Below are positions 18,239 to 42,167 of a stretch of DNA of 48,303 bases, one piece after another. This DNA is from an uncultured Mycoplasmatota bacterium (GTDB taxonomy: Bacteria > Bacillota_I > Bacilli_A > RF39 > UBA660): contig CAMPBR010000003.1 in assembly GCA_946639185.1 (NCBI GenBank), forward strand, positions 1 to 48,303. The letters are read 5' to 3'. Made by a program: the position numbers and the translations under genes. The notes beneath the pieces were generated by a model. It was given only the letters and a program-made list of their open reading frames with translations. It ran no database searches and had not been told where the DNA came from. Within the stretch, counting starts at the first letter, position 1, and each line of letters begins with the position of its first letter.

Positions 18239-19477
18239 CTATGAATTAAAGTTACCTAAATAATACTTTTTCTTACCACGTCTTACTACAATATATTTAC
18301 CATCAATAGCCATATCTTTAGTAATAACTTTATCCATATCTGTTATCTTATTACCATTTATAGTAATACTTCCACTTGTTAAGAATTCTCTTGCTTCACG
18401 TTTGCTAGATAGTATACCATATTTTACTAAAAAATCAAGAATATTTTCACTTTCCTCTATATTAAACCTTGGTACTCCTCTAAATACTTGCTCAATTTCC
18501 TTACCAGTTAAACTAGCTATATCTCCACTAAATAAAACTTGACTAAGTTTTTCAGCATGTAGAAATGATTCTTCACCATGTAAATCAGTAATGAATTCTT
18601 TAGCTAAAGTCTTTTGTGCAAGTCTTGCTTCAGGACATTCAACATGCTTTTTCATAATATCTTCTATTTCATCTTTAGTTAAGAAAGTAAATACTTTTAA
18701 ATATTCTTCAACCTTAGAATCATCTGAATTAATTAAGTATTGATATAACTCATAAGATGAAGTTTTTTCTTCATTTAACCATAAAGCATTTCCTTCAGAT
18801 TTACCAAACTTGTTACCATTAGCATCTAAAATTAATGGCATAGTAAATGCATAAGCAGGTTTTCCTAACATTTTATTAATCAATTCTACACCAGTAGTAA
18901 TATTACCCCATTGATCAGAACCAGCTGCTTGCATAATACAATTTTTTTCTTTATATAAATGAACAAAGTCATAACCCTGAAGTAAAGTATAAGAAAATTC
19001 AGCAAATGTAATACCTGTTTCTAATCTTCTAGAAATAATATCTTTATTAAGCATATAATTAACATTAATATATTTACCTACATCTCTTAAAAAATCAATA
19101 AAACTAAAATCTTTAATCCAATCATAGTTATTAACAACCTCTACATTATTATCAAACAACTCTAAAACTTGATTCTTTATACCTTCAATATTTTTTTCTA
19201 CTGTTTCTTTAGAAATTATATCTCTTTCAGCAGTAGGTCTAGGATCACCAATTAAACCAGTAGCTCCTCCAACTAATAAAATAGGATGATGCCCATATTT
19301 CATTAATCTTTTAGCTGTTAAAAGTGAACTATAATGACCAATATGCAATGAATCAGCTGTTGGATCAGTTCCCCAATAAAAAGTCATATTTCCACTATTT
19401 AACTTCTCAATAAAATCTTCATTATTGGTCATATCTTTAATAAGACCTCTCCATTTTAAATCTTCATAACAATTCAT
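18239..19477 (-). CDS. tyrS: Tyrosyl-tRNA synthetase
   Basis: 412 aa. HIGH motif (SLHIGHY), KMSKS motif (KFGKS), and a C-terminal S4-like domain. Preceded by a T-box leader. Confidence 0.95.
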   Translation of the reverse strand: MNCYEDLKWRGLIKDMTNNEDFIEKLNSGNMTFYWGTDPTADSLHIGHYSSLLTAKRLMKYGHHPILLVGGATGLIGDPRPTAERDIISKETVEKNIEGIKNQVLELFDNNVEVVNNYDWIKDFSFIDFLRDVGKYINVNYMLNKDIISRRLETGITFAEFSYTLLQGYDFVHLYKEKNCIMQAAGSDQWGNITTGVELINKMLGKPAYAFTMPLILDANGNKFGKSEGNALWLNEEKTSSYELYQYLINSDDSKVEEYLKVFTFLTKDEIEDIMKKHVECPEARLAQKTLAKEFITDLHGEESFLHAEKLSQVLFSGDIASLTGKEIEQVFRGVPRFNIEESENILDFLVKYGILSSKREAREFLTSGSITINGNKITDMDKVITKDMAIDGKYIVVRRGKKKYYLGNFNS

Positions 19478-19490
19478 AATACCCTCCTAC

Positions 19491-19690
19491 AAACAAAAAA
19501 GATAGTACCCCAAAGGACGAATTCTCGTGGTACCACCTTACTTTATACTCTAAAACTATAACGCGTCACCGGTTTAACTCCAAACTGTGTATTTCATTAA
19601 AATATCTTGATTTGTTTCCACCACCACAAATTCTCTTATTACCAATATTTTAACTACTAAATAGTTCTTCTTCATTAAATCTAATAAGTA
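19491..19690 (-). promoter_or_regulatory. T-box riboswitch leader, Tyr specifier
   Basis: On the minus strand the T-box sequence AAGGTGGTACCACG lies at 19539..19526, followed by a terminator helix and U-run (19495..19500). A GAAA-UAC-A specifier-loop candidate places UAC at 19591..19589. An AGAGA box lies upstream. Confidence 0.8.
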
Positions 19691-22408: not shown

Positions 22409-23290
22409 CTAAGATAATTTATACAATGAATATTGCCATGGATTCAATTGAGAAATCGTACAACTTCTAGGAGCAAAAATAACTCCTATGACATTAAATT
22501 TCTGATAATACGTCCCATAATCAGTTTCTCCCCAATAAGTATCAGTTTCATATAGAGAAACAAAATAGGCATCATTATCCAATTTGGGATAGAAATTAGT
22601 ATATCGTACATTACTAGTACTGTCATACCATGAACGCCAAATATAAATGCCATAATCTGCGTTATAAGATTGACTCGAACCACCTTGATTATTTTTACTT
22701 GACACTAATGAAGCTGAAGTATAATTTGCTGATGTTAAACCAGAAGAAACATTTATTGCATTTGAATAATAACCAGATGGAATAGTAATTTTAGATCCAC
22801 CATCTAAAATTAAATCAGAATTATTTAAAGTAACATTTGTGCTACTGGTAGTTACTGTTGTTCCACTTGTTGCAGCGGTTCCTCCAACGCCTTTTGGATT
22901 ATAATTAATCCCTGTATTAAAACTTGAATTTGCTGTATAATAGCCACTATTTACTGGCTTTACATATAACTTATTGCTTGTATTAGCTTTAGTACAGGTT
23001 TGTGCAGTTGAAGAACTATAATCATTCATCGTACCAGTTAATAATTGACCACTTGAAAATGCAGTCTTACCAGTTAATATATCTCCAGTTATAGCATTAC
23101 CTGATGTATGTATAGAATAAAGTTCATTGATAGCAGCTTCTACTGTTGTAGTTGTACCATTAGCTTTTACATGGACAACATCACCACTAGCAAACGATAT
23201 ACCTGAAGCATATACACTTATTCCAGAAACAACTATTCCTAATATGAATGCTGCAAATACTTTTAAATTATTTTTAATAAATTTCTGCAT
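22409..23290 (-). CDS. Secreted modular protein A1: constant N-terminal 184 aa, unique Trp/Tyr-rich C-terminal module
   Basis: 293 aa. Signal peptide ...GISVYA/SG. Motifs TTTVEAAINELYS, DILTGKTAFSSGQLLTGTM and ITIPSGYYSNAINVSSG. GGAGGTGGAAGT RBS. Confidence 0.8.
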   Translation of the reverse strand: MQKFIKNNLKVFAAFILGIVVSGISVYASGISFASGDVVHVKANGTTTTVEAAINELYSIHTSGNAITGDILTGKTAFSSGQLLTGTMNDYSSSTAQTCTKANTSNKLYVKPVNSGYYTANSSFNTGINYNPKGVGGTAATSGTTVTTSSTNVTLNNSDLILDGGSKITIPSGYYSNAINVSSGLTSANYTSASLVSSKNNQGGSSQSYNADYGIYIWRSWYDSTSNVRYTNFYPKLDNDAYFVSLYETDTYWGETDYGTYYQKFNVIGVIFAPRSCTISQLNPWQYSLYKLS

Positions 23291-23338
23291 ACTTCCACCT
23301 CCTTAATATTCATATAACTCATTTAAAGCGTATTCAAC
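22739..23338 (-). repeat. Direct repeat A, copy 1 (~600 nt): 48 nt of upstream sequence plus the first 552 nt of the CDS
   Basis: Aligns to 23720..24319 at a constant offset of 981 nt. The stretch 22824..22969 reads identical to 23805..23950. There are 15 amino-acid differences in 184 residues by my count. Confidence 0.85.
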
Positions 23339-23359: not shown

Positions 23360-24271
23360 TCATTTTAAACCACATATTTTTATTGGTATAGTGTTATTAT
23401 TAAATATACCAGTCGCATTTCTTTTCGTTGCAGCCGCTATCCTTACAGTTGTATCATTTACTTTAATAATTATACGTTCATACCATGCTGATGTATCTTT
23501 AGCGGTAATCATCCATCCTACCATATTATTCGTCTCTGTCTGAAATTCATCCAAAGGAATAAGCATACTACCATCATTATCACCTGATGTACTTACACGG
23601 CTATAGACCTTTAAGTATTTATAATTGTTAATACTATCAGAAAGTGGAACATCTTGTGCTGCAAAAGTAACAGTAGGACTTGAATTTGTCCATAATACTG
23701 TTTCAGATAATGCTACATTTCCAGATGAAACATTTATTGTATCAGAATAATAACCTGCAGGAATCGTGATTTTAGTTCCAGCCTCCAAAATTAAATTAGA
23801 ATTGTTTAAAGTAACATTTGTGCTACTGGTAGTTACTGTTGTTCCACTTGTTGCAGCGGTTCCTCCAACGCCTTTTGGATTATAATTAATCCCTGTATTA
23901 AAACTTGAATTTGCTGTATAATAGCCACTATTTACTGGCTTTACATATAATTCATTACTTGTATTAGCTTTAGTACAGGTTTGTGCAATTGAAGAACTAT
24001 AATCATTCATCGTACCAGTTAATAATTGACCATTTGAAAATGCAGTCTTACCTGTTAATATATCTCCAGTTGTAGCATTACCTGATGTATGTATAGAATA
24101 AAGTTCATTGATAGCAGATTCTACTGTTGTAGTTGTACCATTAGCTTTTGTATGAGCAACATCACCACTAGCAAACGATATACCTGAAGCATATACACTT
24201 ATACCAGAAACAACTATTCCTAATATGAATGCTGCAACTACTTTTAAATTATTTTTAATAAATTTCTGCAT
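23360..24271 (-). CDS. Secreted modular protein A2: same constant N-terminal module, different C-terminal module
   Basis: 303 aa. The first 184 aa are nearly identical to A1. The C-terminal ~120 aa (VLWTNSSPTVTFAAQDVPLSDSINNYKYLKVY...) are unrelated to A1. Confidence 0.8.
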   Translation of the reverse strand: MQKFIKNNLKVVAAFILGIVVSGISVYASGISFASGDVAHTKANGTTTTVESAINELYSIHTSGNATTGDILTGKTAFSNGQLLTGTMNDYSSSIAQTCTKANTSNELYVKPVNSGYYTANSSFNTGINYNPKGVGGTAATSGTTVTTSSTNVTLNNSNLILEAGTKITIPAGYYSDTINVSSGNVALSETVLWTNSSPTVTFAAQDVPLSDSINNYKYLKVYSRVSTSGDNDGSMLIPLDEFQTETNNMVGWMITAKDTSAWYERIIIKVNDTTVRIAAATKRNATGIFNNNTIPIKICGLK

Positions 24272-24319
24272 ACTTTCACATCCTTAATATTCATATAACT
24301 CATTTAAAGCGCATTCAAC
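23720..24319 (-). repeat. Direct repeat A, copy 2
   Basis: See copy 1. It includes the last 11 codons, the stop and the RBS region of the upstream 400-aa gene (24272..24319). Confidence 0.85.
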
Positions 24320-26534: not shown

Positions 26535-27815
26535 ATGAAGTTTATTACAGATATAGAAAAAGATAGATATGAAGAATTTGTAAAGAATCATAAAAAGAGT
26601 CATTTCCTACAAAGCTATGCTTGGGGAGAATTTGCTCAAAAAGAAAAAAATCTAATACCACACTATGTTGGTCTAGAAGATAATGACAAACTAGTAGCAA
26701 CTGCTCTTATTCTAGAAAAAAAATTACCTTTAAACTTATCTTATTTCTATATACCTCGTGGTTATGTATTAGATTATGATAATTTAGATATATTAAAATG
26801 CTTTACTAAAAATATAAAAGATTATGCAAAAAAATATAAAGCTATATTCATTAAAATAGATCCTGATAATATTTATCACGAAGAAGATAATAATGGTAAT
26901 ATTATTAAAGATAATAATAATGAACTAGTTAAAAATTTAAAATCTCTAGGTTACAAACATCTAGGATTTACTAAAAACTTTGAAACAATGCAACCTAGAT
27001 ATACTTTTAGAATAAATATGGACAAACCTTATGAAGAAATAGAAAATAATTTTTCTAAGACTACTAAACAAAGAATCAAAAAAGCTAATGATTTAGATGT
27101 TAGTGTTAGAATTGGTAATGAAAATGATATTAATTCATTCTATAATTTAATGATTCTAACAGAAAATAGAAAAGATTTTATTACTCATAATGAACAATAT
27201 TATAAGTCTTTATATGAAATATGGAATAAAGATAATTCATGTAATATCTTTTTAGGAAGTGTTGATTTAGATAAAATAATTAATATTTTAGATAAAAAGA
27301 AAATTGAATTAGAAAGTGAATTAAACCTTCTTCCTAAAGAGGATTTATCTAAATCTCAAAAATCTAAAAAAGCAGAATTAGAAAGACAATTAGAAAAAAC
27401 TAATAGTGACATAGAAAAATATTCAAATAGTAAAAAAGAATACGGTTCTAATATCATATTATCTGCTCACTTTATAATTGAATATGGTAATACTGCTTGG
27501 GTATTATATGCTGGAAATCATAATATTTTATCTGAAACTTATACAAATTATAAAACTTATGAAGAACATATTAAGTATTATTATAATAAAGGTATTAAAA
27601 CTTATGATCAATTTGGAACTATTGGTGACTTAAGAAAAGATAATCCACTACTTGGACTTCATGAATTTAAGAAAAAGTTTGGTGGAAACTATGTTGAATT
27701 TTGTGGAGAATTCGATCTTATAACTAATAAACTTATGTATTTTATATTTACTAAACTGGTACCTATTTATAGAAATATAATTAAGAAAAATGCTAAAAAG
27801 AAAAGAGGTAAATAA
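26535..27815 (+). CDS. FemAB-family peptidoglycan interpeptide-bridge aminoacyltransferase (1 of 3)
   Basis: 426 aa. HFLQSYAWGEF, YIPRGYVLDY, a coiled-coil insertion, and ...LHEFKKKFGG typical of FemX/FemA/FemB. Confidence 0.85.
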   Translation: MKFITDIEKDRYEEFVKNHKKSHFLQSYAWGEFAQKEKNLIPHYVGLEDNDKLVATALILEKKLPLNLSYFYIPRGYVLDYDNLDILKCFTKNIKDYAKKYKAIFIKIDPDNIYHEEDNNGNIIKDNNNELVKNLKSLGYKHLGFTKNFETMQPRYTFRINMDKPYEEIENNFSKTTKQRIKKANDLDVSVRIGNENDINSFYNLMILTENRKDFITHNEQYYKSLYEIWNKDNSCNIFLGSVDLDKIINILDKKKIELESELNLLPKEDLSKSQKSKKAELERQLEKTNSDIEKYSNSKKEYGSNIILSAHFIIEYGNTAWVLYAGNHNILSETYTNYKTYEEHIKYYYNKGIKTYDQFGTIGDLRKDNPLLGLHEFKKKFGGNYVEFCGEFDLITNKLMYFIFTKLVPIYRNIIKKNAKKKRGK

Positions 27816-29113
27816 TGGAGTTTACAGAATTAACTAGTGAAGAATTTTTAAATTTTACTAAAAATCATGAACAAGTATCTTTTTACCAAACACTAAATTG
27901 GGGTAATCTTAAAAGAGAAAACGGATGGTTATCTCATTTAGTTGGAGTTAAAAAAGATGGTAGTGTTGTCGCAGCAAGTTTAATTTTATCAAAAGAAATT
28001 AAATTTGGTAAAAAAATGTTTTATGCTCCTCGTGGATTTATATTAGACTATAATGATTATGATTTATTAAAATTCTTTACTAAAAATATAAAAGAATATG
28101 CTAAAAGACGTGGCGCAATCTTTATTAAAATAGATCCATATATTTCTTATCAAGAAAGAGATTTAGAAGGAAATATCGTTCCAAATGGTAAAAACAATAA
28201 ACAAGCTTATGATAATTTAATTAAACTTGGATATAAACATTTTGGATTTAACTTAATGCAAGAAAGCTTACAACCTCGTTGGATATTTATAACTCCTTCT
28301 AAAAATACTACTGTTGAAGAAGTTATGAAAAATATGGATGCTAAAACAAGACAAATTTTAAGAAAAAATGAAAGAAATAAAATTAAAGTAAGAGAAATTG
28401 GTTATGATGAATTAAATAAATTTAAAGATATTATGGCTCATACTGGTGAAAGAAGAGAATTTATTGATAGACCTCTTTCATATTACCAAGAAATGTATAA
28501 ACATCTACACGATGATGGAATATTAAAAATATTAATTGCAGAACTTGATACAAATGAACTTATTAATGAATATCAAAATGAAATAGATAACTTAAAGAAA
28601 GAAAAAGAAGATAGAGCTAATAAATATAATCAAGATCCAGCCAAAATGAATGAGCAAAAGTATCGTGAAAAACAAGCTTTTTGTGATAAAGAAATAGAAA
28701 GAATTAATAAAACACAAAATCATATTAGAGATTTAAAATTAAAATATGGAAATGTTATTACTTTAGGTGGAATCTTATTCTTAATATATGGAAATGAAGT
28801 ATTATCATTAGTTGGAGGTTCTTATAAAGACTTTATGGAATTCCAATCTGCATATACTGTTCATTTTGCAGGATTAAAATATGCGATTGAAAATAACTAT
28901 GAAAGATATAATTTCTATGGTATAACAGGAGTATTTGATAAAGAAAACCCATTATTTGGATTATATTCATTTAAAAGAGACTTTGGTGGTAAAGTAGTAG
29001 AACTTATTGGAGAATTTGATTTAGTTATTGATAAACCTATGTATTCAATATATAAGTTAGCATTTAAAACATATAAAAAATTAAAAAATTTAAAAAATCA
29101 TATAAGAAACTAA
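27815..29113 (+). CDS. FemAB-family aminoacyltransferase (2 of 3)
   Basis: 432 aa. SFYQTLNWGNL, YAPRGFILDY, a coiled-coil arm, LYSFKRDFGG. Its start overlaps the stop of the previous fem gene. Confidence 0.85.
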   Translation: MEFTELTSEEFLNFTKNHEQVSFYQTLNWGNLKRENGWLSHLVGVKKDGSVVAASLILSKEIKFGKKMFYAPRGFILDYNDYDLLKFFTKNIKEYAKRRGAIFIKIDPYISYQERDLEGNIVPNGKNNKQAYDNLIKLGYKHFGFNLMQESLQPRWIFITPSKNTTVEEVMKNMDAKTRQILRKNERNKIKVREIGYDELNKFKDIMAHTGERREFIDRPLSYYQEMYKHLHDDGILKILIAELDTNELINEYQNEIDNLKKEKEDRANKYNQDPAKMNEQKYREKQAFCDKEIERINKTQNHIRDLKLKYGNVITLGGILFLIYGNEVLSLVGGSYKDFMEFQSAYTVHFAGLKYAIENNYERYNFYGITGVFDKENPLFGLYSFKRDFGGKVVELIGEFDLVIDKPMYSIYKLAFKTYKKLKNLKNHIRN

Positions 29114-29649: not shown

Positions 29650-30906
29650 TTACCTCCCTATAATATTTTTTACCCTCTTTAGTAATCTATATACATTATA
29701 AAACAAACTTACCTTTAAGTCAAACTCTCCAATGTATTCTATTACATTTCCATTAAATCCTTTTTTAAATTCATATATTCCATAATATTTACCTTTAGGA
29801 TTAAAATCTCCAGTAATACCATAGAAATTACAGTATTTAAAACCTTCCTTATATGCTTCTTTTATATGATGTTCATACATTAAATACTTAGGTGTAAATT
29901 CTTTATAATCAGCTAAAATCCCACTAGATAAAGTTAAATATTCACATCCGCTTCTTAAAGATAATAAACATCCAATATCTCTTCCGTTAGGATACTCTTC
30001 TTTAAATTTAGTTGCTTTTTCTAATTCTTTTTCATATTTAGCTATTTGTTTTAAAGCAATTTCTTTATCGTTGATTAATTTAGCACCAACCATATTATTC
30101 TGCATTTTTTCTTCTACTTGATTAAGTTTACTCTTAGCTTCACTTAATAAACCCAAAGTATGCTCATAATAAATATCAGGATTTAAATAAGCAATATAAA
30201 TAGTCATTAAATTACTCATATTTTTATACATTTGTTGATAATATTCTAAAGTTCTAGAAAAGAAATCTTTTCTCCTTGAAGTAATTTCAAATATCTCGGT
30301 CATAGTAGCTAAATCATCAATAGTACCCTCTCTTACCATTAAGCCTTTTTTAATACAAGACTCAATATTCTTTCTAGTACTTTTGGAAAACTTCTTTTTC
30401 TTTTCTTCATATTCTTCATCAAGTTCTAATAAATAACACCATCTAGCTTGTTTAGTATCTAAATATAAATTAAATCCATGATGATTATATCCTAATTTTT
30501 TTAAATTATTAATTGCTTCATCATTTTGCCCATTTTCTGGAATAATATCTCCATCACTACTTCTCTTGCGATATATAACATTAGGATCAATAGTTAACAT
30601 AAAACCTTTATGTTTTTTAATATATTTTTTTACTTCATCAGTAAAAAATTTTAATAAATCATAATTATTATAATCAACTATTAAACCACGTGGAGCATAA
30701 AACATTTTTTTATTAAATATTGTTCTATCCTCTAATAATAATGATCCCGCAATTATCTTATCATTTTCTAAGACACCAACATAGTGTTTAATACTACCAC
30801 GTTCTTCTTTTAAATGAGCAAGTTCTGGAGTTTGCATAAAAGAAGAAGAAGGATTATCTTTAATAAATTTTCTAAATTCTTCTTCTGTTAATTCTCTAAA
30901 TTCCAA
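29650..30906 (-). CDS. FemAB-family aminoacyltransferase (3 of 3)
   Basis: SFMQTPELAHL, YAPRGLIVDY, a coiled-coil arm, IYEFKKGFNG. I prefer TTG 30906 as the start (GAGGTGA RBS), which gives M-EFRELTEEEF, parallel to MEFTELTSEEF in paralog 2. Confidence 0.85.
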   Translation of the reverse strand: MEFRELTEEEFRKFIKDNPSSSFMQTPELAHLKEERGSIKHYVGVLENDKIIAGSLLLEDRTIFNKKMFYAPRGLIVDYNNYDLLKFFTDEVKKYIKKHKGFMLTIDPNVIYRKRSSDGDIIPENGQNDEAINNLKKLGYNHHGFNLYLDTKQARWCYLLELDEEYEEKKKKFSKSTRKNIESCIKKGLMVREGTIDDLATMTEIFEITSRRKDFFSRTLEYYQQMYKNMSNLMTIYIAYLNPDIYYEHTLGLLSEAKSKLNQVEEKMQNNMVGAKLINDKEIALKQIAKYEKELEKATKFKEEYPNGRDIGCLLSLRSGCEYLTLSSGILADYKEFTPKYLMYEHHIKEAYKEGFKYCNFYGITGDFNPKGKYYGIYEFKKGFNGNVIEYIGEFDLKVSLFYNVYRLLKRVKNIIGR

Positions 30907-30925
30907 GATAATCACCTCATCTTTC

Positions 30926-35749: not shown

Positions 35750-36505
35750 TTATCTAGCAGCATAATATGTTTTATTATACCAATCACGTGGTTTAATAAC
35801 TTTACAATTTTTTAAAGCAATTTCTTCTATACTTTCACTATTAATATCACCATAATTATATAATTCTTCTTGTTCTTCTAAAGTCGCATCAGCTTTAGTT
35901 ATAATTCCATTAGGATTAATAGTAATTAATGGTCCAACATGACATACCCCATTTTTTCTATCAAACATTTTTATTTTATTCATGTAAGTAACATAATTAT
36001 CTGGAAAATTAGCCGATCTAGTTATTATTCTAGGTTCCTTACAAAATTCATAAAAATATTTAGATTCCATATACTTCTTAACATGTGTTAAAGTTTCTCT
36101 ATAAATACCCAATCTCTTTAAAGAGTTTTTATGTTCAGTATCTCTTAAAATACTTAATCTAACATCAGCTGTATTAAAAGTATATATTAAATATCTATTA
36201 ATATAATCTAAAAGTCTTATAAAATCTTCATCATACTTAGTACCATTAATAGTTATATCAAGTGTTCTTAATTCCACTCTATTACGAAAAATAGATTTAA
36301 ACATATATTCTAAGGTATCTAAAGCCAATACAGGTTCTCCACCATATATATGTAGATTATTTACTCGATTTAATTGATTGAATGTAATATCAATAACTTC
36401 TGAAGACATATCTAGATTATTATTACTACATACACAATCATGACACTCTAAATTACATTTATTGGTGATTATCATAGCTAAGTTGTTTATATTAATTCTG
36501 TTCAT
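35750..36505 (-). CDS. Radical SAM protein with no SPASM/twitch extension, function unknown
   Basis: 251 aa from ATG 36505 (GGGGTGA RBS). CNLECHDC supplies the CX3CX2C motif, and HIYGGEPVL is the GGEP motif. There is no C-terminal Cys cluster. Confidence 0.7.
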   Translation of the reverse strand: MNRININNLAMIITNKCNLECHDCVCSNNNLDMSSEVIDITFNQLNRVNNLHIYGGEPVLALDTLEYMFKSIFRNRVELRTLDITINGTKYDEDFIRLLDYINRYLIYTFNTADVRLSILRDTEHKNSLKRLGIYRETLTHVKKYMESKYFYEFCKEPRIITRSANFPDNYVTYMNKIKMFDRKNGVCHVGPLITINPNGIITKADATLEEQEELYNYGDINSESIEEIALKNCKVIKPRDWYNKTYYAAR

Positions 36506-36577
36506 ATTATCACCCCAATCGCCTACATTATAACATGGTAACAATTAGTTTTCTATATGTTTACATATTTTTTACAA

Positions 36578-37384
36578 TTATTTCTTATCTTCAAGTTCTT
36601 TCACATTACTTTTAGGAGTTGGCAAATCTTCTGGCATTGTTCCACCAAGTTTCCTAATTGAATTTCTTACTTCTTTACCAACACTATAATGCGTAGAATT
36701 AGCATCATATTCATTATCTACTTTATCTCTTTTTAATTTGGCTTCAGTTTGCGTTATTCTAAAAATATTAGCACCTAACTCTTCACTACCCATATAATCC
36801 AATATATCTTCCCTATACTTAAGTTTCTTTCTTTTAAATATATCATTGGCTGTCTCACCATTATAAAGTCCCTTATATCCAGCATTATGAAATTCCGCCA
36901 TATTTTTAACACCAGAGGCTATAGCCGTTCTATTTAAACCAAAATTTAAACTTTTAACTCTTTTTCTGTTTCTAATTCGTTTTTCATCTTCACTAAGTTT
37001 ACTATATTCTTCTTCCAATAGTTCTTGTTTCCTTGTTTGATGAGCAAAATAAGTTTGAGCAAGAGCAATAGTTTTCTTCCTAGAATCACCATTTTGAGCA
37101 ATTAAATAACACGCATAACGTGATAGATGATAATCCTTGATTATTTCTTTTTTCCCTTTACCTGTAGTTATTGGCTTGTCGGCACCGACAAACCAATCAT
37201 TATCATTATTACCAGATTTTACACAAGCAATTTTGGCCTTATCAATTACTCCATTAAACTTTCTCCATTCAGTATAATCTAGTACTTTTTGAAGTTCCCT
37301 TGCACTCCAATATTCATTACCATCTTCATCAAAATGTTTAATACTATCAAAAATACTTGCTGTATAATTTTCTAAATTTTCCAT
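36578..37384 (-). CDS. dinD: DNA damage-inducible protein D (DinD, Bro-N-like domain)
   Basis: 268 aa. ...EYWSARELQKVLDYTEWRKF..VIDKAKIAC..SG......LSRYACYLIAQNGDSRK..IALAQTYFAHQTRKQELLEE parallels E. coli DinD along its length. Confidence 0.8.
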   Translation of the reverse strand: MENLENYTASIFDSIKHFDEDGNEYWSARELQKVLDYTEWRKFNGVIDKAKIACVKSGNNDNDWFVGADKPITTGKGKKEIIKDYHLSRYACYLIAQNGDSRKKTIALAQTYFAHQTRKQELLEEEYSKLSEDEKRIRNRKRVKSLNFGLNRTAIASGVKNMAEFHNAGYKGLYNGETANDIFKRKKLKYREDILDYMGSEELGANIFRITQTEAKLKRDKVDNEYDANSTHYSVGKEVRNSIRKLGGTMPEDLPTPKSNVKELEDKK

Positions 37385-37563
37385 AAAATTCCTCCTGTAA
37401 AAGCACTATAACACATACAAAAAAAGTAAACAAATTGCTATTTTAAAATATTAAAGCAAACAAAAAGAAGAAAAATTAATTTTCTTCTATACTTTATTCA
37501 AATTTCAACTAACCTTTAAATCTAAAATTCAAATTTCAGCAAATATATTTTTTTACATTTAAA

Positions 37564-37592
37564 TTGATAAAAAAATTATACTATGTTAAAAT
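37564..37592 (+). promoter_or_regulatory. SigA-type promoter of secreted-protein gene B1
   Basis: TTGATA (37564..37569), 17 nt, TGT-TAAAAT (extended -10, 37587..37592). Confidence 0.6.
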
Positions 37593-37599
37593 AAAACTA

Positions 37600-37762
37600 G
37601 GTGATAATATGAAGGTGTTTAAGAACCCAATCTTCATGTTTATTCTCGGTGTCTTTATTTCAAATGGGATTATGGTTTTTGCTGAATACGTAATTTCAGC
37701 TGATAAAATTGAGTATTCTACAAATATTTCTGTAAAAGATAAGATTGATGATTTATATACTA
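37600..37762 (+). repeat. Direct repeat B, copy 1 (163 nt): RBS plus the first 51 codons
   Basis: Reads 100% identical to 38390..38552 (offset 790). The flanking sequence on both sides is divergent. Confidence 0.9.
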
Positions 37763-38265
37763 AAGTTAAACCAACTTATACTGGTAGTACAATAGTAAAT
37801 CCTATTACTGGTTCTAATCCACTTATCTTACAAACTGCAGGCAAAATACTAAATAATGATATTACTATCAATCCGATACCAAATAGTTTTACAGATGTAT
37901 CTTTATCAACTATAACTAGTACCGATGATATAATGTCAGGAAAGAAAGCATATAAACCAGATGGTACTCTAATAACAGGTACAGGAAATAAAAGTATTAT
38001 ACAAAATTTCTCAATAGATTCCAATTATAGTAACTCTACATATAAATTTGAATTAGGATTCCAACCTAGTTTAATATACATAGCATGGCAAAATGGTTAT
38101 TGCTGGATATATGTTAATAATAAGCAATATGTATATAATACTACAAATGGTACCGGTTATAATTCATCATTTGATGGTATGATAATAACAAATACTGGTT
38201 TCAATATGAATGTTACCAAATACCAAATACAAGGAATGTCTGGTACAATGTATGTAATGAATTAA
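37609..38265 (+). CDS. Secreted modular protein B1
   Basis: 218 aa from ATG 37609 (GGTGATAAT RBS). Signal peptide ...GIMVFA/EY. Motifs IEYSTNISVKDKIDDLYT and DIMSGKKAYKPDGTLITGT. Unique C-terminal module. Confidence 0.8.
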   Translation: MKVFKNPIFMFILGVFISNGIMVFAEYVISADKIEYSTNISVKDKIDDLYTKVKPTYTGSTIVNPITGSNPLILQTAGKILNNDITINPIPNSFTDVSLSTITSTDDIMSGKKAYKPDGTLITGTGNKSIIQNFSIDSNYSNSTYKFELGFQPSLIYIAWQNGYCWIYVNNKQYVYNTTNGTGYNSSFDGMIITNTGFNMNVTKYQIQGMSGTMYVMN

Positions 38266-38269
38266 AAAA

Positions 38270-38296
38270 GGTTAGTAGAATTTCTACTAACCTTTT
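38270..38296 (+). terminator. Terminator after B1
   Basis: Perfect 10-bp stem GGTTAGTAGA/TCTACTAACC (38270..38279 / 38283..38292) plus TTTT. Confidence 0.8.
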
Positions 38297-38327
38297 ACTA
38301 CGATATTAACAATCTTACCTTTAATAA
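38280..38327 (-). pseudogene. Orphan copy of the leuS 3' end (last 13 codons, the stop, and half of the terminator)
   Basis: 48 nt identical to 39089..39136 (offset 809). The minus strand encodes ...IKGKIVNIVVKG*, the same as the LeuS C-terminus, with no leuS body attached. Confidence 0.85.
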
Positions 38328-38352
38328 TGTTATTTTTTATATTTAATTTAAT

Positions 38353-38381
38353 TTGACTTACTAACAACCATATGCTAGAAT
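38353..38381 (+). promoter_or_regulatory. SigA-type promoter of secreted-protein gene B2
   Basis: TTGACT (38353..38358), 17 nt, TGC-TAGAAT (38376..38381). Confidence 0.6.
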
Positions 38382-38389
38382 TATAGTAA

Positions 38390-38552
38390 GGTGATAATAT
38401 GAAGGTGTTTAAGAACCCAATCTTCATGTTTATTCTCGGTGTCTTTATTTCAAATGGGATTATGGTTTTTGCTGAATACGTAATTTCAGCTGATAAAATT
38501 GAGTATTCTACAAATATTTCTGTAAAAGATAAGATTGATGATTTATATACTA
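38390..38552 (+). repeat. Direct repeat B, copy 2
   Basis: See copy 1. Confidence 0.9.
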
Positions 38553-39040
38553 CTGCCAATAATACTTTAGCAACTAAAGAGCAAACAATATCTACATTAT
38601 CTGGACAAGTTAATTCATTACAAGAAGAACTAGATAGTTTAGAAGATGATATTTCAACTGGAACAAAAGAAATAACAGCAAATGGTCAACAAACATTAGA
38701 TAAATATTATAAAAAAGTTAACGTTAATGTTCCATTAGATATAAAAAGTGGATTAAGTGGAAAAACTAGTTTTGGTCAAAAAGGAGTTAGTTGGAGTGGA
38801 TTTACCGTAAATCATAAATATTTAGCATTATATTCAAGTGTATACTTTGCATATGGAACACAAGCATATTTAAATTCTGGTGCTAAAGATATAGAAATTC
38901 TTGCTTCTACTAGCATTACTAAAAATTCAGTTTGGAATTTATGTTCCGTTATAACATTTACAGCTACTAGTTCTACAGTAAGTTTATATTATGAGGGTTC
39001 AACAGATTATTACTTTATGAAGTTTATTGATATAACCTAA
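38399..39040 (+). CDS. Secreted modular protein B2
   Basis: 213 aa. The first 51 aa are identical to B1. A short coiled coil follows (LSGQVNSLQEELDSLEDDIS), then ITANGQQTLDKYYKKVNVNVP and a unique C-terminal module. Confidence 0.8.
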   Translation: MKVFKNPIFMFILGVFISNGIMVFAEYVISADKIEYSTNISVKDKIDDLYTTANNTLATKEQTISTLSGQVNSLQEELDSLEDDISTGTKEITANGQQTLDKYYKKVNVNVPLDIKSGLSGKTSFGQKGVSWSGFTVNHKYLALYSSVYFAYGTQAYLNSGAKDIEILASTSITKNSVWNLCSVITFTATSSTVSLYYEGSTDYYFMKFIDIT

Positions 39041-39046
39041 TCTATT

Positions 39047-39069
39047 AGAAGGGCTATCCTTCTTTTTTT
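39047..39069 (+). terminator. Terminator after B2
   Basis: Stem AGAAGG/CCTTCT (39047..39052 / 39058..39063) followed by a T-run. Confidence 0.6.
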
Positions 39070-39071
39070 AT

Positions 39072-39102
39072 ACGAAAAAAAGATTAGTATTTCTACTAAC
39101 CT
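39072..39102 (-). terminator. leuS terminator
   Basis: Stem AGATTAGTA/TACTAACCT (39081..39089 / 39094..39102, one mismatch) overlapping the TAG stop, with an A-run on the plus strand (a U-run on the minus transcript). Confidence 0.65.
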
Positions 39103-41501
39103 TTTACTACGATATTAACAATCTTACCTTTAATAACGATTGTCTTTAAAATTTCATTACCATCTGTATATTTCTTAACATTATCGCAAGCTAATGCTTT
39201 TTCTAAAATAACTTCATCACTATCATTAATATTTACATTAATAGTAGCTCTTACTTTACCATTTACTTGAACAGCTATAGTCTTCTCTTCATCAACTAAC
39301 TTAGATTCTTCATAAGTTGGCCAAGTAGATTCACAGAATGGTTTACCTAAATTATATTCTTCATTTAACTCTTCAGTAATATGAGGAGCAACTGGATTTA
39401 ATAAATGTAAGAATGTACGATAATCAGCTTTTGTAATACTATCCATCTTATCCATTGTATTAGATAAAATCATTAATGCTGAAATAGCAGTATTAAATTT
39501 AAGACTATCCATATCCTCTGTAACTTTTTTAACAGTTTTGTGGATATCTTTTTCTAATTCTTTACTATATTCATTATTATCAACAACTTTTTCACCTAAA
39601 CGAACAATCTTATCTAAGAAACGTTTAGCTCCTGCTACACCTTGTTCACTCCATGTAGCTTCTTTTTCATAATCACCAATAAACATTTCATAAACTCGAA
39701 GTGTATCAGCTCCATAAGCATCTACGATTTCATCAGGATTAATAACGTTACCAAGAGATTTACTCATCTTAACGCCACCTTCACCTAAAATCATACCATG
39801 ACTAGCTCTTACTTTAAATGGTTCCTTATTTGGAACTAATCCTTCATTATATAAGAATTGATTCCAGAATCTAGCATAAAGTAAATGACGTGTAGCATGT
39901 TCCATACCACCATTATACCAATCTACTTTTCCCCAATATTCAAGTGCTTCACGAGAAACAAATTCTTTTTCATTATGAGGATCCATATATCTTAAGAAAT
40001 ACCAAGATGAACCTGCCCAGTTAGGCATTGTATCAGTTTCTCTCTTAGCAGGTTTTCCACAATGAGGACAAGTAGTATTTACAAACTCAGGAATACGAGC
40101 AAGTGGACTTTCTCCATCATCAGTAGGCTCATATTCAGCAACATTTGGTAACACTACTGGTAAATCTTTTTCATCTACAGGTACCCAGCCACAATCCTCA
40201 CAATAAACTAGAGGGATTGGCTCTCCCCAGAATCTTTGACGAGTAAAGATCCAATCTTGAAGTTTAAAATTAGTTTTCTTACGACCAATACCCTTTTCTT
40301 CAAGATACTCTATCATCTTATTAATAGAATCTTTTTTATTATCAAATCCATTTAAGAAATCAGAATTAACCATTTCACCATCTTCAGTATAAGCAGCTTT
40401 TGATATATCTCCACCCTTAATTACTTCAATAATATCAATTCCAAATTTCTTTGCGAAATCATAATCTCTAGCATCATGAGCAGGAACAGCCATAATAGCT
40501 CCAGTTCCATAATTCATCATTACATAATCAGAAATATAAATTGGAATTTCTTTTCCATTGACTGGATTAATTGCTGATAATCCATCTAACTTAACACCAG
40601 TTTTATCTTTAACTAATTGCGTACGTTCAAATTCACTTTTCTTATTAGCTTGTTCACGATAATCAATTACTTCATTCATATTCTTAATTAATCCACCATA
40701 TAGATCAATGTAAGGATGTTCAGGAGCAACTACCATAAATGTAACTCCAAATAATGTATCTGGACGAGTTGTATAAATAGTTAACTTTTCATCTACTTGT
40801 TTAAGTTTAAAATCAACTTCAGCACCTGTAGATTTACCTATCCAATTAATTTGAGCAACCTTAGTTTTTTCTTGAAACTCTGTATCATCAAGGCCATCTA
40901 TTAATTGTTGTGCATAATCACTCATTCTAAGAACCCATTGTTCTTTTTCTTTTTGAACAACTTGACTACCACATCTTTCACATACTCCACCACTAGAATC
41001 TTCATTAGATAATCCCATTTTACATTTAGGACACCAATTTATATTCTTTTTAGCCTTATAAGCCATACCCTTTTTAAAGAATTGTAAGAATTGCCATTGA
41101 GTCCATTTATAATATTCAGGATCAGTTGTTGAAAACTCACGTTCCCAATCAAAAGAAATACCTAATCTTTGAATTTGAGCTTTAAATGTTTTAATATTTT
41201 CTTTTACAGCAATACTAGGATGTATATGATTCTTAATAGCATATTGTTCAGCAGGAGCTCCAAATGCATCCCATCCCATTGGGAATAATACATTATATCC
41301 TTGCATTCTCTTTTTACGAGCTAAACTATCAAGAGCAGTATAACTTCTTACATGTCCAACATGAAGACCTGCTCCAGATGGATAAGGAAATTCTACTAAA
41401 TAATAATATTTTTCTTTATTTTTATCAATTTCAGCATGGAAAGTTTTATTATCTTCCCAATACTTTTGCCACTTTTCTTCTAATCTTTTAGTACTTATCA
41501 T
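39096..41501 (-). CDS. leuS: Leucyl-tRNA synthetase
   Basis: 801 aa. HVGH (HIGH) motif, a KMSKS motif (VKMSKS), a CP1 editing domain and a Zn-finger CPKC...CERC. Confidence 0.97.
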   Translation of the reverse strand: MISTKRLEEKWQKYWEDNKTFHAEIDKNKEKYYYLVEFPYPSGAGLHVGHVRSYTALDSLARKKRMQGYNVLFPMGWDAFGAPAEQYAIKNHIHPSIAVKENIKTFKAQIQRLGISFDWEREFSTTDPEYYKWTQWQFLQFFKKGMAYKAKKNINWCPKCKMGLSNEDSSGGVCERCGSQVVQKEKEQWVLRMSDYAQQLIDGLDDTEFQEKTKVAQINWIGKSTGAEVDFKLKQVDEKLTIYTTRPDTLFGVTFMVVAPEHPYIDLYGGLIKNMNEVIDYREQANKKSEFERTQLVKDKTGVKLDGLSAINPVNGKEIPIYISDYVMMNYGTGAIMAVPAHDARDYDFAKKFGIDIIEVIKGGDISKAAYTEDGEMVNSDFLNGFDNKKDSINKMIEYLEEKGIGRKKTNFKLQDWIFTRQRFWGEPIPLVYCEDCGWVPVDEKDLPVVLPNVAEYEPTDDGESPLARIPEFVNTTCPHCGKPAKRETDTMPNWAGSSWYFLRYMDPHNEKEFVSREALEYWGKVDWYNGGMEHATRHLLYARFWNQFLYNEGLVPNKEPFKVRASHGMILGEGGVKMSKSLGNVINPDEIVDAYGADTLRVYEMFIGDYEKEATWSEQGVAGAKRFLDKIVRLGEKVVDNNEYSKELEKDIHKTVKKVTEDMDSLKFNTAISALMILSNTMDKMDSITKADYRTFLHLLNPVAPHITEELNEEYNLGKPFCESTWPTYEESKLVDEEKTIAVQVNGKVRATINVNINDSDEVILEKALACDNVKKYTDGNEILKTIVIKGKIVNIVVKG

Positions 41502-41502
41502 A

Positions 41503-41958
41503 TTATTTCACCTTTTTCTTTCTTCTTATTTTATTTTCTTTTTTAGCCTCTTTTTTACTATCTTTTTCTTTTAACTTTTCTAAATACTTCTTTTCTTTTT
41601 CTAATTCCTTAGAATTATCTTTTGTTTGTTTCTTTTGATAAAACTTACCAAGTAACATAAATGTAATAGCTATAATAGGAATTATTATAATTAAACTAAA
41701 TAATATCTGCCAAATAACTCTACTATCAATTACAGCTACCAAAGTAGCAACCAATGCTACATCAAAACTTGTAACTAATCCAACTATTTTTATAAATTTA
41801 CGATAACTAAATTTATTAACATCTAGCTTATATAAATTTATTAAATAATTAGCTTCACTTGGTACTTTTTCTCCTCTTACAGTTCTTCTAATAAACCATA
41901 CATAATATATACAATATATCAGTATATAATCAAAAATAAACCATCCAAGTATTTCCAT
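41503..41958 (-). CDS. Small membrane protein (about 3 TM helices plus a Lys/Glu-rich tail) co-transcribed with leuS
   Basis: 151 aa with a GGAGG RBS. Its stop TAA lies 1 nt before the leuS ATG, and the leuS RBS lies inside its 3' end. It sits between the Leu T-box and leuS. Confidence 0.6.
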   Translation of the reverse strand: MEILGWFIFDYILIYCIYYVWFIRRTVRGEKVPSEANYLINLYKLDVNKFSYRKFIKIVGLVTSFDVALVATLVAVIDSRVIWQILFSLIIIIPIIAITFMLLGKFYQKKQTKDNSKELEKEKKYLEKLKEKDSKKEAKKENKIRRKKKVK

Positions 41959-41971
41959 AAAACCTCCATAA

Positions 41972-42161
41972 AAAGAAAAAAGGTGATACCTAAAGGACGA
42001 ACATGTCGTGGTACCACCTTATTTTATACTCTAAACTGATATAGGAGTCACCCTAATTCACTCAAAGAAGCAAGTTCATATAAACATTATTATCTACTTA
42101 CACCAACCATAGACTCTCTTCAAATAATTTTTATATTACTACTCTTCCATCAACATGAAAC
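41972..42161 (-). promoter_or_regulatory. T-box riboswitch leader, Leu specifier
   Basis: On the minus strand AAGGTGGTACCACG lies at 42020..42007. The terminator pairs AAGGTGGTACC with GGTATCACCTT and has a U-run (41981..41976). An AGAGAG box is present, and the specifier candidate GAA-CUU-G places CUU at 42074..42072. Confidence 0.8.
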
Positions 42162-42167
42162 AAACTT

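Follow-up and report, generated by a model that had tools for sequence, protein, structure and literature searches.

Probable scar of a tandem duplication at leuS, kept sharp by gene conversion, in a family of putative exported modular proteins

The 48,303-nt stretch of DNA analysed here (the window; positions 1 to 48,303 of contig CAMPBR010000003.1, assembly GCA_946639185.1, from an uncultured Mycoplasmatota bacterium) contains two adjacent plus-strand genes, here called A (37609..38265) and B (38399..39040), which are convergent with the minus-strand gene for the 801-aa leucyl-tRNA synthetase, leuS (39096..41501). The two genes begin with an identical 5' module, continue into dissimilar cores and are each followed by the same 48 nt of leuS sequence. 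We consider it likely, with a probability of about 0.75, that this layout is the scar of an old tandem duplication of approximately 0.8 kb which has been kept sharp by recurrent gene conversion, in a family of modular exported proteins. Alignment with nine contigs that other metagenome assemblies provided for this species (L001, L002, L091, L093, L094 and L095-L098) shows that the perfect 5' identity arose by recent gene conversion from A to B.

Repeats and duplication junction beside leuS

Genes A and B form a short plus-strand island in the window, which has approximately 25% G+C and most of its genes on the minus strand, and they lie downstream of a DinD/Bro-N-like gene and a radical S-adenosylmethionine (radical-SAM) gene. 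The 5' repeat covers 37599-37762 and 38389-38552 on the plus strand, 164 nt at 100% identity that extends no further at either end, and contains the ribosome-binding site (RBS; AGGTGA), the ATG and 51 codons for a signal-like helix and ADKIEYSTNISVKDKIDDLYT. The match (BLAST E=9e-83) was far above chance in 48 kb, and the 163-nt identity described earlier from the letters of the window alone (the sequence-only reading) was confirmed to within 1 nt. The start of gene A was placed at ATG 37609 and not at TTG 37564, based on RBS support and agreement with homologs. The 3' repeat covers 38280-38327 and 39089-39136, 48 nt at 100% identity. BLAST and translation confirmed the previous assignment of the right-hand copy as the genuine leuS end on the minus strand, composed of the last 13 codons, the TAG stop and 7 nt of the terminator, and of the left-hand copy as an orphan. 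The orphan, also on the minus strand, contains the same 7 nt of terminator, stop codon and 13 codons (IKGKIVNIVVKG and stop), with which a spurious open reading frame (ORF) at 38287-38559 ends. The 48 nt sit within an 86-nt alignment of 87% identity (38264-38348 and 39076-39158; BLAST E=5e-23), and the similarity just outside them is decayed.

In L002, the regions upstream of A and of B are homologous over 222 nt at 89% identity, promoter included (1016-1237 and 1807-2027 of that contig, respectively), and the leuS-derived repeat is found at 1739-1823 and 2551-2633. In window coordinates, the leuS-derived homology ends at 38327 and the homology of the promoter and 5' module starts at approximately 38332, with a gap of about 4 nt that marks the duplication junction (38328..38331). 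Because the 48-nt arm abuts the repeat of promoter and 5' module, the two arms are one block, the joint of a tandem duplication of approximately 0.8 kb. The junction is seen directly in the alignment; the event behind it would have been the tandem duplication of a unit that began shortly before the promoter, extended 13 codons into the convergent leuS and comprised the promoter, the 5' module, the core, the terminator and the 13 leuS codons. The leuS scrap and terminator arm would lie directly beside the second promoter and 5' module because the duplicated unit reached into leuS. The sequence-only reading had taken the unequal offsets between the repeat pairs (790 and 809 nt) as an argument against a simple tandem duplication, but the offsets differ solely because the A and B cores differ in length. 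It had also regarded the 48-nt sequence as a fixed 3' homology arm, but this sequence is the duplication scar abutting the 5' repeat and occurs at no other family locus.

The 5' repeat of the window begins only at 37599 because a segment containing the DinD/Bro-N-like gene replaced the original upstream region of A. This gene is present directly upstream of A in the window, L001 and L095, and L096-L098 carry the same upstream sequence as far as the contigs run, with 0/214 differences from the window in L095, L097 and L098 and 0/205 in L096. L002 lacks the DinD-like gene and has the radical-SAM gene directly upstream of A instead. A candidate third and decayed junction of leuS terminator arm and promoter was found upstream of A at 37500-37568 (AATTTCAACTAACCTTT...); its score was marginal, as 18 of 1000 shuffles attained it, and the corresponding region of L002 gave no significant match. 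If real, this copy would point to an earlier third cassette.

Each gene was found to have its own candidate SigA-like promoter by consensus match, in agreement with the sequence-only reading. The predicted sigma-70-like promoter of A is TTGATA-17-TAAAAT at 37564..37592 on the plus strand, and that of B is TTGACT-17-TAGAAT at 38353..38381 on the same strand, both with an extended -10 TG; the B promoter corresponds by homology to the one that precedes A in L002. In each gene the top-scoring plus-strand sigma-70-like site lies just 5' of the RBS, in AT-rich DNA in which the overall number of promoter-like sites was not above chance. The terminator of A (38266..38296) is a perfect 14-bp hairpin between A and T runs (-17.2 kcal/mol, z=-6.6), with the orphan leuS fragment supplying its right arm. 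The intrinsic terminator of B (39047..39063, plus strand) has a stem of 7 bp and then a run of T. Neither gene is truncated: a promoter-like site, an RBS, an ATG, a full ORF and a terminator were identified for both.

Similarity between the two genes breaks off abruptly at codon 51, which is a module boundary across the family. Gene A encodes 218 aa with the N-module, a middle module 'KVKP...TP..Q.L...NITINPIP...GKKAY..DGT' and a C-terminal beta-sandwich. Gene B encodes 213 aa, in which the N-module leads into a long helical stalk at residues 42-87; no homologs of its C-terminal domain were found outside this species. That the cores are without similarity, as reported earlier, was supported by BLASTP of residues 52 to the end (E>4), and a family-core profile built without B gave the B core a colinear but marginal match of 12.1 bits (maximum of 9.1 in 1000 shuffles). 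Architectures of both the A-type and the B-type occur at other loci and in other genomes, indicating that these subfamilies are older than the species-specific locus. No family gene was found downstream of leuS in any of 80 related leuS loci, including that of the closest species with 85% LeuS identity, which marks the pair as a species-specific insertion into a variable spot.

The A-type and B-type cores would then be different, older subfamilies, and the most likely origin of the pair is recombination between different alleles, either unequal or facilitated by homology, or else the replacement of one core at a later time; divergence of the two cores in situ is unlikely. The best surviving alternative is the one that gives this divergence the whole weight, namely that A and B are ancient tandem paralogs whose cores drifted beyond recognition where they stand, with the flanks held by conversion and by selection on the signal peptide and terminator, and with no heterologous core. 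In its favour, the B core has its marginal, colinear profile match, conversion demonstrably maintains the flanks, as described below, and the sequence beyond the 48-nt arm is decayed. We nevertheless regard it as unlikely, for the two subfamilies predate a locus that the closest species lacks, the similarity ends at the family-wide boundary of codon 51 rather than fading, and the noncoding promoter region is still about 85-89% identical between the units in L002.

Conversion of the constant parts among strains

Extra strains were retrieved through the flanking 151-aa protein and through cluster members, and exact-protein look-ups of the window LeuS and A protein gave no record. All compared strains were >98% identical. 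In every contig reaching the locus the order A-B-leuS and the two cores were the same, with cores 99.4-100% identical; the variation in cores or cassette number among strains that the earlier cassette proposal called for was absent. Divergence from the window per segment was 0-0.8%, except in the B 5' module and the 48-nt leuS arm.

The B 5' module diverged from the window by 15/164 in L002, 11/164 in L095-L098 and 8/105 in L091 and L093, and the clustering of the L002 differences in this module was highly significant (Fisher p=2e-11). In the five contigs spanning both genes (L002 and L095-L098), the A and B 5' modules were approximately 91-93% identical to each other, with 11-15 differing sites. 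The A 5' module (37599..37762) was essentially invariant in the seven strains in which it was assembled, bar one window-private change, while the B 5' module (38389..38552) was found in four mosaic states, from 9% off A to identical. In L002 it is B-type throughout; in L095-L098 it is B-type except for an internal A-type patch (38503-38512); in L091 and L093 it is A-type over 38459-38486 and turns B-type from 38503; and in the window and L001 it is A-type throughout. The two site blocks thereby occur in all four combinations, which requires exchange and not mutation, and since B is found in four states while A hardly varies, it is A that has repeatedly converted B, as donor and recipient, respectively. 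Paralogs at another locus carry most of the B-type variants, indicating that the B-type is the older state. A G-to-A change private to the window affects the two copies alike (37664 and 38454), where L001 has G in both; the two 5' module copies of L001 are 99.4% identical, with one private difference.

The second segment that diverged was the 48-nt leuS arm, with 3/48 differences from the window in five strains. The genuine leuS end has GGA/AAA/ATT in L091, L093, L094, L095 and L096, and the orphan-type GGT/AAG/ATC in the window, L001 and L002 (39111, 39123 and 39126); all three changes are synonymous. In L094, 3 of 10 differences fell within the 48 nt (p=4.5e-4). Each codon of GGA/AAA/ATT was matched by at least one of two outgroup species (L010 and L011). 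The orphan fragment was the same in all strains except for a loop base, with extra differences in the low-coverage contig L097. The simplest reading of this pattern is that the orphan fragment overwrote the last 13 codons of the essential leuS with synonymous variants.

After the duplication, ordinary homologous recombination repeatedly copied short tracts between the repeats, as the strain comparison shows, and the 100% identities of the window would be the newest conversion tracts, limited by where homology stops. The sequence-only reading had proposed cassette replacement or gene conversion between the two repeats. Gene conversion is borne out by the B mosaics, the invariant A and the leuS variants, but the converted tracts are the constant parts and not the cores.

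The protein family and the neighbourhood of the locus

Genes A and B belong to a family in which about 45 unnamed proteins are close homologs and about 2,300 representatives, counted as clusters at 50% identity, match at E<=1e-3. No match was found for A or B in Pfam, PHROGs, NCBIfam or PADLOC, other than coiled-coil noise for B, and a Pfam scan of all 45 close family members returned nothing. When the family profile was compared with the GTDB representatives, which do not include the species of the window, the pattern matched 42 times with 0 confirmed. The family N-terminus consists of a K-rich n-region (MKVFK), approximately 19 hydrophobic residues and V-F-A, in which the -1 Ala is at least 90% conserved in the 45 homologs; the consensus at this site is VFA, then EY, and residues 1-51 of A and B are free of Cys. 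This segment is followed by an invariant strand-helix motif "...IEY..N.SVKDKIDDLY". The A-type continues with the extended middle module and a beta-sandwich of about 100 aa, often with a Cys...ACK pair, and the B-type with the long helix at residues 42-87; several other heads occur in the family. Repeated copies of the middle module are also found in large proteins that carry BspA-type leucine-rich repeats, DUF285 and PHROG repeat families of unknown function.

The AlphaFold2 (AF2) model of A had a mean predicted local distance difference test (pLDDT) score of 73, of medium confidence, with a helix predicted at residues 7-19. The model of B, with a pLDDT of 50, was confident for the helix only and too poor for a fold search. 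With the A model as query, Foldseek gave no match in the PDB at E<=0.001, and weak BFVD matches to phage tail or fibre proteins (best E=2e-4, TM 0.2-0.3). A phage-fibre link had also been considered from the N-terminal motif "...YDNS.SGL...V.DAIDDLY", which is typical of phage fibres, and was dropped after a null phage search: neither gene A nor the motif had a tblastn match in 50,697 phage records, for the motif even at E<=10. No phage context was found at the locus, where the neighbours are chromosomal housekeeping genes. An H-type lectin head (PF09458, 26.3 bits against a cut-off of 24; PHROG 'lectin') was recognised in a single distant member of the family (L111 2907-3353), and no H_lectin match to this Pfam family was found in A or B.

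From these features, A and B are probably secreted or surface-displayed proteins, with heads that are probably interchangeable and ligand- or glycan-binding, mounted on a constant export or docking module. The heads are variable, with at least one lectin among them, and are plausible mediators of surface or glycan interactions. The family itself is a sizeable and wholly unannotated group of small, probably exported proteins of modular build, found in uncultured Bacilli of low GC from gut and rumen. A bolder proposal, that the N-module is a docking handle for some conserved structure of the cell surface and that selection keeps the shared 5' DNA as a recombination substrate for shuffling, stacking and discarding heads, we regard as a long shot; if true, it would be a recombinase-free, chromosomal counterpart of the swapping of phage receptor-binding proteins.

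At other family loci, neither a leuS fragment nor a common 3' repeat was found. In L003, an array of four genes lies between GerE-like and GerM-like genes, with 5' modules that are 78-95% identical mutually and approximately 70-78% identical to those of the window. Single family genes adjoin a sigma factor, ezrA or spoIIR, and further arrays, of two and of four genes, are present on JGI contigs. Two strains compared at the spoIIR-prmC locus have the flanks and the first ~270 nt of the gene in common (94-100%), and their heads are non-homologous. One strain has at spoIIR-prmC a 38-codon relic in which 23 N-terminal codons are in frame with the last 15 codons of the gene of the other strain, and which by its sequence is an in-frame collapse of a whole family gene. 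This mini-ORF (MKVFKNLIFMFILGGFIFSGITSARYTDSFTVEYIACM and stop; L009 1838-1960) comes immediately behind an intact paralog. Distant members form another tandem array of four genes at L111 917-3353, with a longer N-motif '...SSDVSYDNSSSGLEANNVKDALDDLY...' and the H-type lectin head in its fourth gene.

Stacking, loss and collapse of cassettes via the shared 5' module are real at the level of the family and are explained by ordinary homologous recombination. To this extent the proposal of the sequence-only reading that C-terminal modules can be swapped or stacked on a constant export module holds for a modular family at other loci; it does not hold for the leuS locus, where no such variation was seen. 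A dedicated system, in which the 5' repeat and the 48-nt repeat would serve as fixed arms for programmed swapping and stacking of C-terminal modules at leuS, could be suspected from two perfect repeats around unrelated cores, from the many heads carried on one N-module, from the tandem arrays and from the core difference between strains at spoIIR-prmC. It is very unlikely, given that the cores and their order are constant in all strains at leuS, that the 3' arm is the duplication junction of this locus and has no counterpart at other family loci, and that the exchanges seen touch constant parts only. Moreover, there was no recombinase or integrase among the neighbouring genes within about 10 kb, no attC-like site at the boundaries, which consist of the leuS fragment and terminator, no significant inverted repeat near A and B besides the terminators, and no silent cassette at the locus.

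The DinD/Bro-N-like gene (36578..37384, minus strand) matched NCBIfam NF008573 (2e-101), Pfam Bro-N and the candidate defence family PDC-S13 of PADLOC (1e-98). The radical-SAM gene (35750-36544) is 84% identical between L002 and the window, against approximately 98% for A-B-leuS, and gave a weak match to prokaryotic viperin. The spot downstream of leuS looks like a hotspot for recombination and defence genes. As part of the bolder proposal above, a role of A and B at the phage or host interface is conceivable, since the genes occupy variable spots beside candidate defence genes.

Other repeats were observed in the window. A 599-nt direct repeat of 94.7% identity (22740-23338 and 23721-24319) lies in adjacent minus-strand genes at 22409-23290 and 23360-24271 (293 and 303 aa), which had no Pfam match and look like another tandem paralog pair under concerted evolution. 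Two T-box leaders on the minus strand precede the operon of the 151-aa ORF and leuS (41990-42162, 80.4 bits) and tyrS (19510-19681, 67.6 bits), respectively; both scores are below the Rfam gathering cut-off of 93, and the default scan reported no RNA. An 81-nt repeat (19475-19554 and 41956-42035) exists because both sites are T-box leaders. At 26535-29113 on the plus strand lie two adjacent paralogs of approximately 430 aa, 34% identical, with stretches of DNA that are 73% identical between them and to an inverted gene at approximately 30.5 kb (29650-30915, minus strand). From their N-termini (MKFITDIEKDRYEEF... and MEFTELTSEEFLNF...), these may be FemAB-like.

Alternative readings and comparison with known systems

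Several points weigh against a duplication scar sharpened by recurrent conversion. The 3' arm pattern could also have arisen by duplication in a lineage already bearing the derived leuS codons, followed by spread of the block by allelic recombination, which would yield the same pattern with no conversion from orphan to leuS, and the order of events could differ from the one given here. The joining of two different cores is a reconstructed step, and the marginal profile match of the B core may reflect very old common ancestry of the cores. The fixed cassette content of the locus was shown over the short evolutionary distance that separates these strains. As to the proteins, the A model is of medium confidence, the B model is poor and there was no significant fold match; the N-terminus is possibly an uncleaved membrane anchor instead of a cleaved signal, and expression, secretion and binding of A and B are all inferred.

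Phase or antigenic variation of the vsp/vsa or pilE/pilS type, in which one expressed gene is switched by inversion or by conversion from silent copies, is highly improbable. The host belongs to a reduced-genome, Mollicutes-like gut lineage, and the arrangement of a conserved 5' region and signal with a variable remainder recalls the Vsp lipoproteins (PMC10504702). However, A and B are each complete with a promoter-like site, RBS and terminator of their own, the N-module has no lipobox cysteine, no recombinase lies within about 10 kb, no significant inverted repeats flank the promoters, there are no simple-sequence or coding tandem repeats (TRF gave only a trivial 17-nt repeat in 37400-39200), and the variable cores are identical between strains. 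The readings as inversion, phase variation, integron or toxin cassette were all rejected, the features that define such systems being absent from the locus.

The chance that the layout is an artefact of assembly or polishing, with collapsed or mis-joined metagenome repeats, is close to nil: the 164-nt repeat is longer than common k-mer sizes and several contigs of other samples break at it, but the order of A, orphan, B and leuS was recovered in independent assemblies from several other samples, the modules differ at 11-15 sites in the five spanning contigs, so that the path is unambiguous, and L001 independently has 99.4% identity between its copies with one private difference. The sequence-only reading had itself raised this possibility, and the identities stood. 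In L091 and L093 the contig stops after exactly 55 nt of the A-identical tract of the B module (window 38448), and L094 stops at the module boundary (window 38558); such SPAdes-style contigs stopping in the repeat or at the module boundary are an independent sign that the repeat exists in those genomes. They also carry a practical warning, that near-identical modules fragment short-read metagenome-assembled genomes exactly at the module boundary.

The statement of the sequence-only reading that no described system has this layout remains true of the leuS detail only, as paralogs with identical termini that exchange by conversion are well known. The closest analogues are the Helicobacter pylori genes babA, babB and babC and similar families of outer-membrane adhesins, paralogs with near-identical termini and a divergent rest that determines function, in which intragenomic 5' conversion gives chimeric alleles that vary between strains (PMC4552749). 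Here too a near-identical terminal segment is joined to a divergent rest, with mosaic 5' alleles among strains. In contrast to the dispersed bab loci, A and B are adjacent in tandem, share only the 5' end within the coding region and have as their second repeat a scrap of a housekeeping gene. They lack CT-repeat phase switches, encode small proteins (approximately 215 aa) which are not beta-barrel outer-membrane proteins and belong to a Gram-positive-type lineage, and conversion was seen only to homogenise the constant part, with the expressed variable region unchanged.

The vsp genes of Mycoplasma (Mycoplasmopsis) bovis share a promoter and 5' region and an N-terminal domain for export and membrane insertion, with a variable rest and a strain-specific repertoire (PMC10504702). 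The likeness lies in clustered genes with a conserved 5' export part and a variable remainder. Vsps differ in being lipoproteins with repetitive C-termini that undergo site-specific inversion by a dedicated recombinase, whereas A and B have no lipobox, coding tandem repeats, recombinase or inversion signals. In Anaplasma msp2, Borrelia vlsE and Neisseria pilE/pilS, conserved ends flank a variable segment and recombination between copies is non-reciprocal (PMC4534519). Those systems convert the variable region of a single expressed gene from promoterless donors, whereas A and B are both intact genes and it is their constant flanks that were converted. Integrons have an integrase and attC/attI sites at the boundaries, neither of which was found in the neighbourhood in the window. 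Polymorphic toxins of the Rhs-CDI type have a large N-terminal body, a toxin and an immunity gene, whereas A and B are 213-218 aa with a constant part of 51 aa; no toxin or immunity domain was matched in them in Pfam, PHROGs, NCBIfam or PADLOC, and there were no small ORF pairs.

A further parallel is the generic concerted evolution of tandem duplicates, with unequal or homology-facilitated recombination, from which nothing essential differs: the junction, the tracts bounded by homology and the expansion and collapse of arrays are all shared. What is unusual here is that unrelated cores lie in one duplication footprint and that an orphan fragment would feed synonymous changes into an essential gene. 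The locus is a clear case of a known process, with no new genetic mechanism revealed. It is a well-resolved natural example of concerted evolution, with several independent tracts that have different endpoints, a consistent donor and apparent transfer from an orphan to a tRNA-synthetase gene, and is useful as a teaching and benchmark case.

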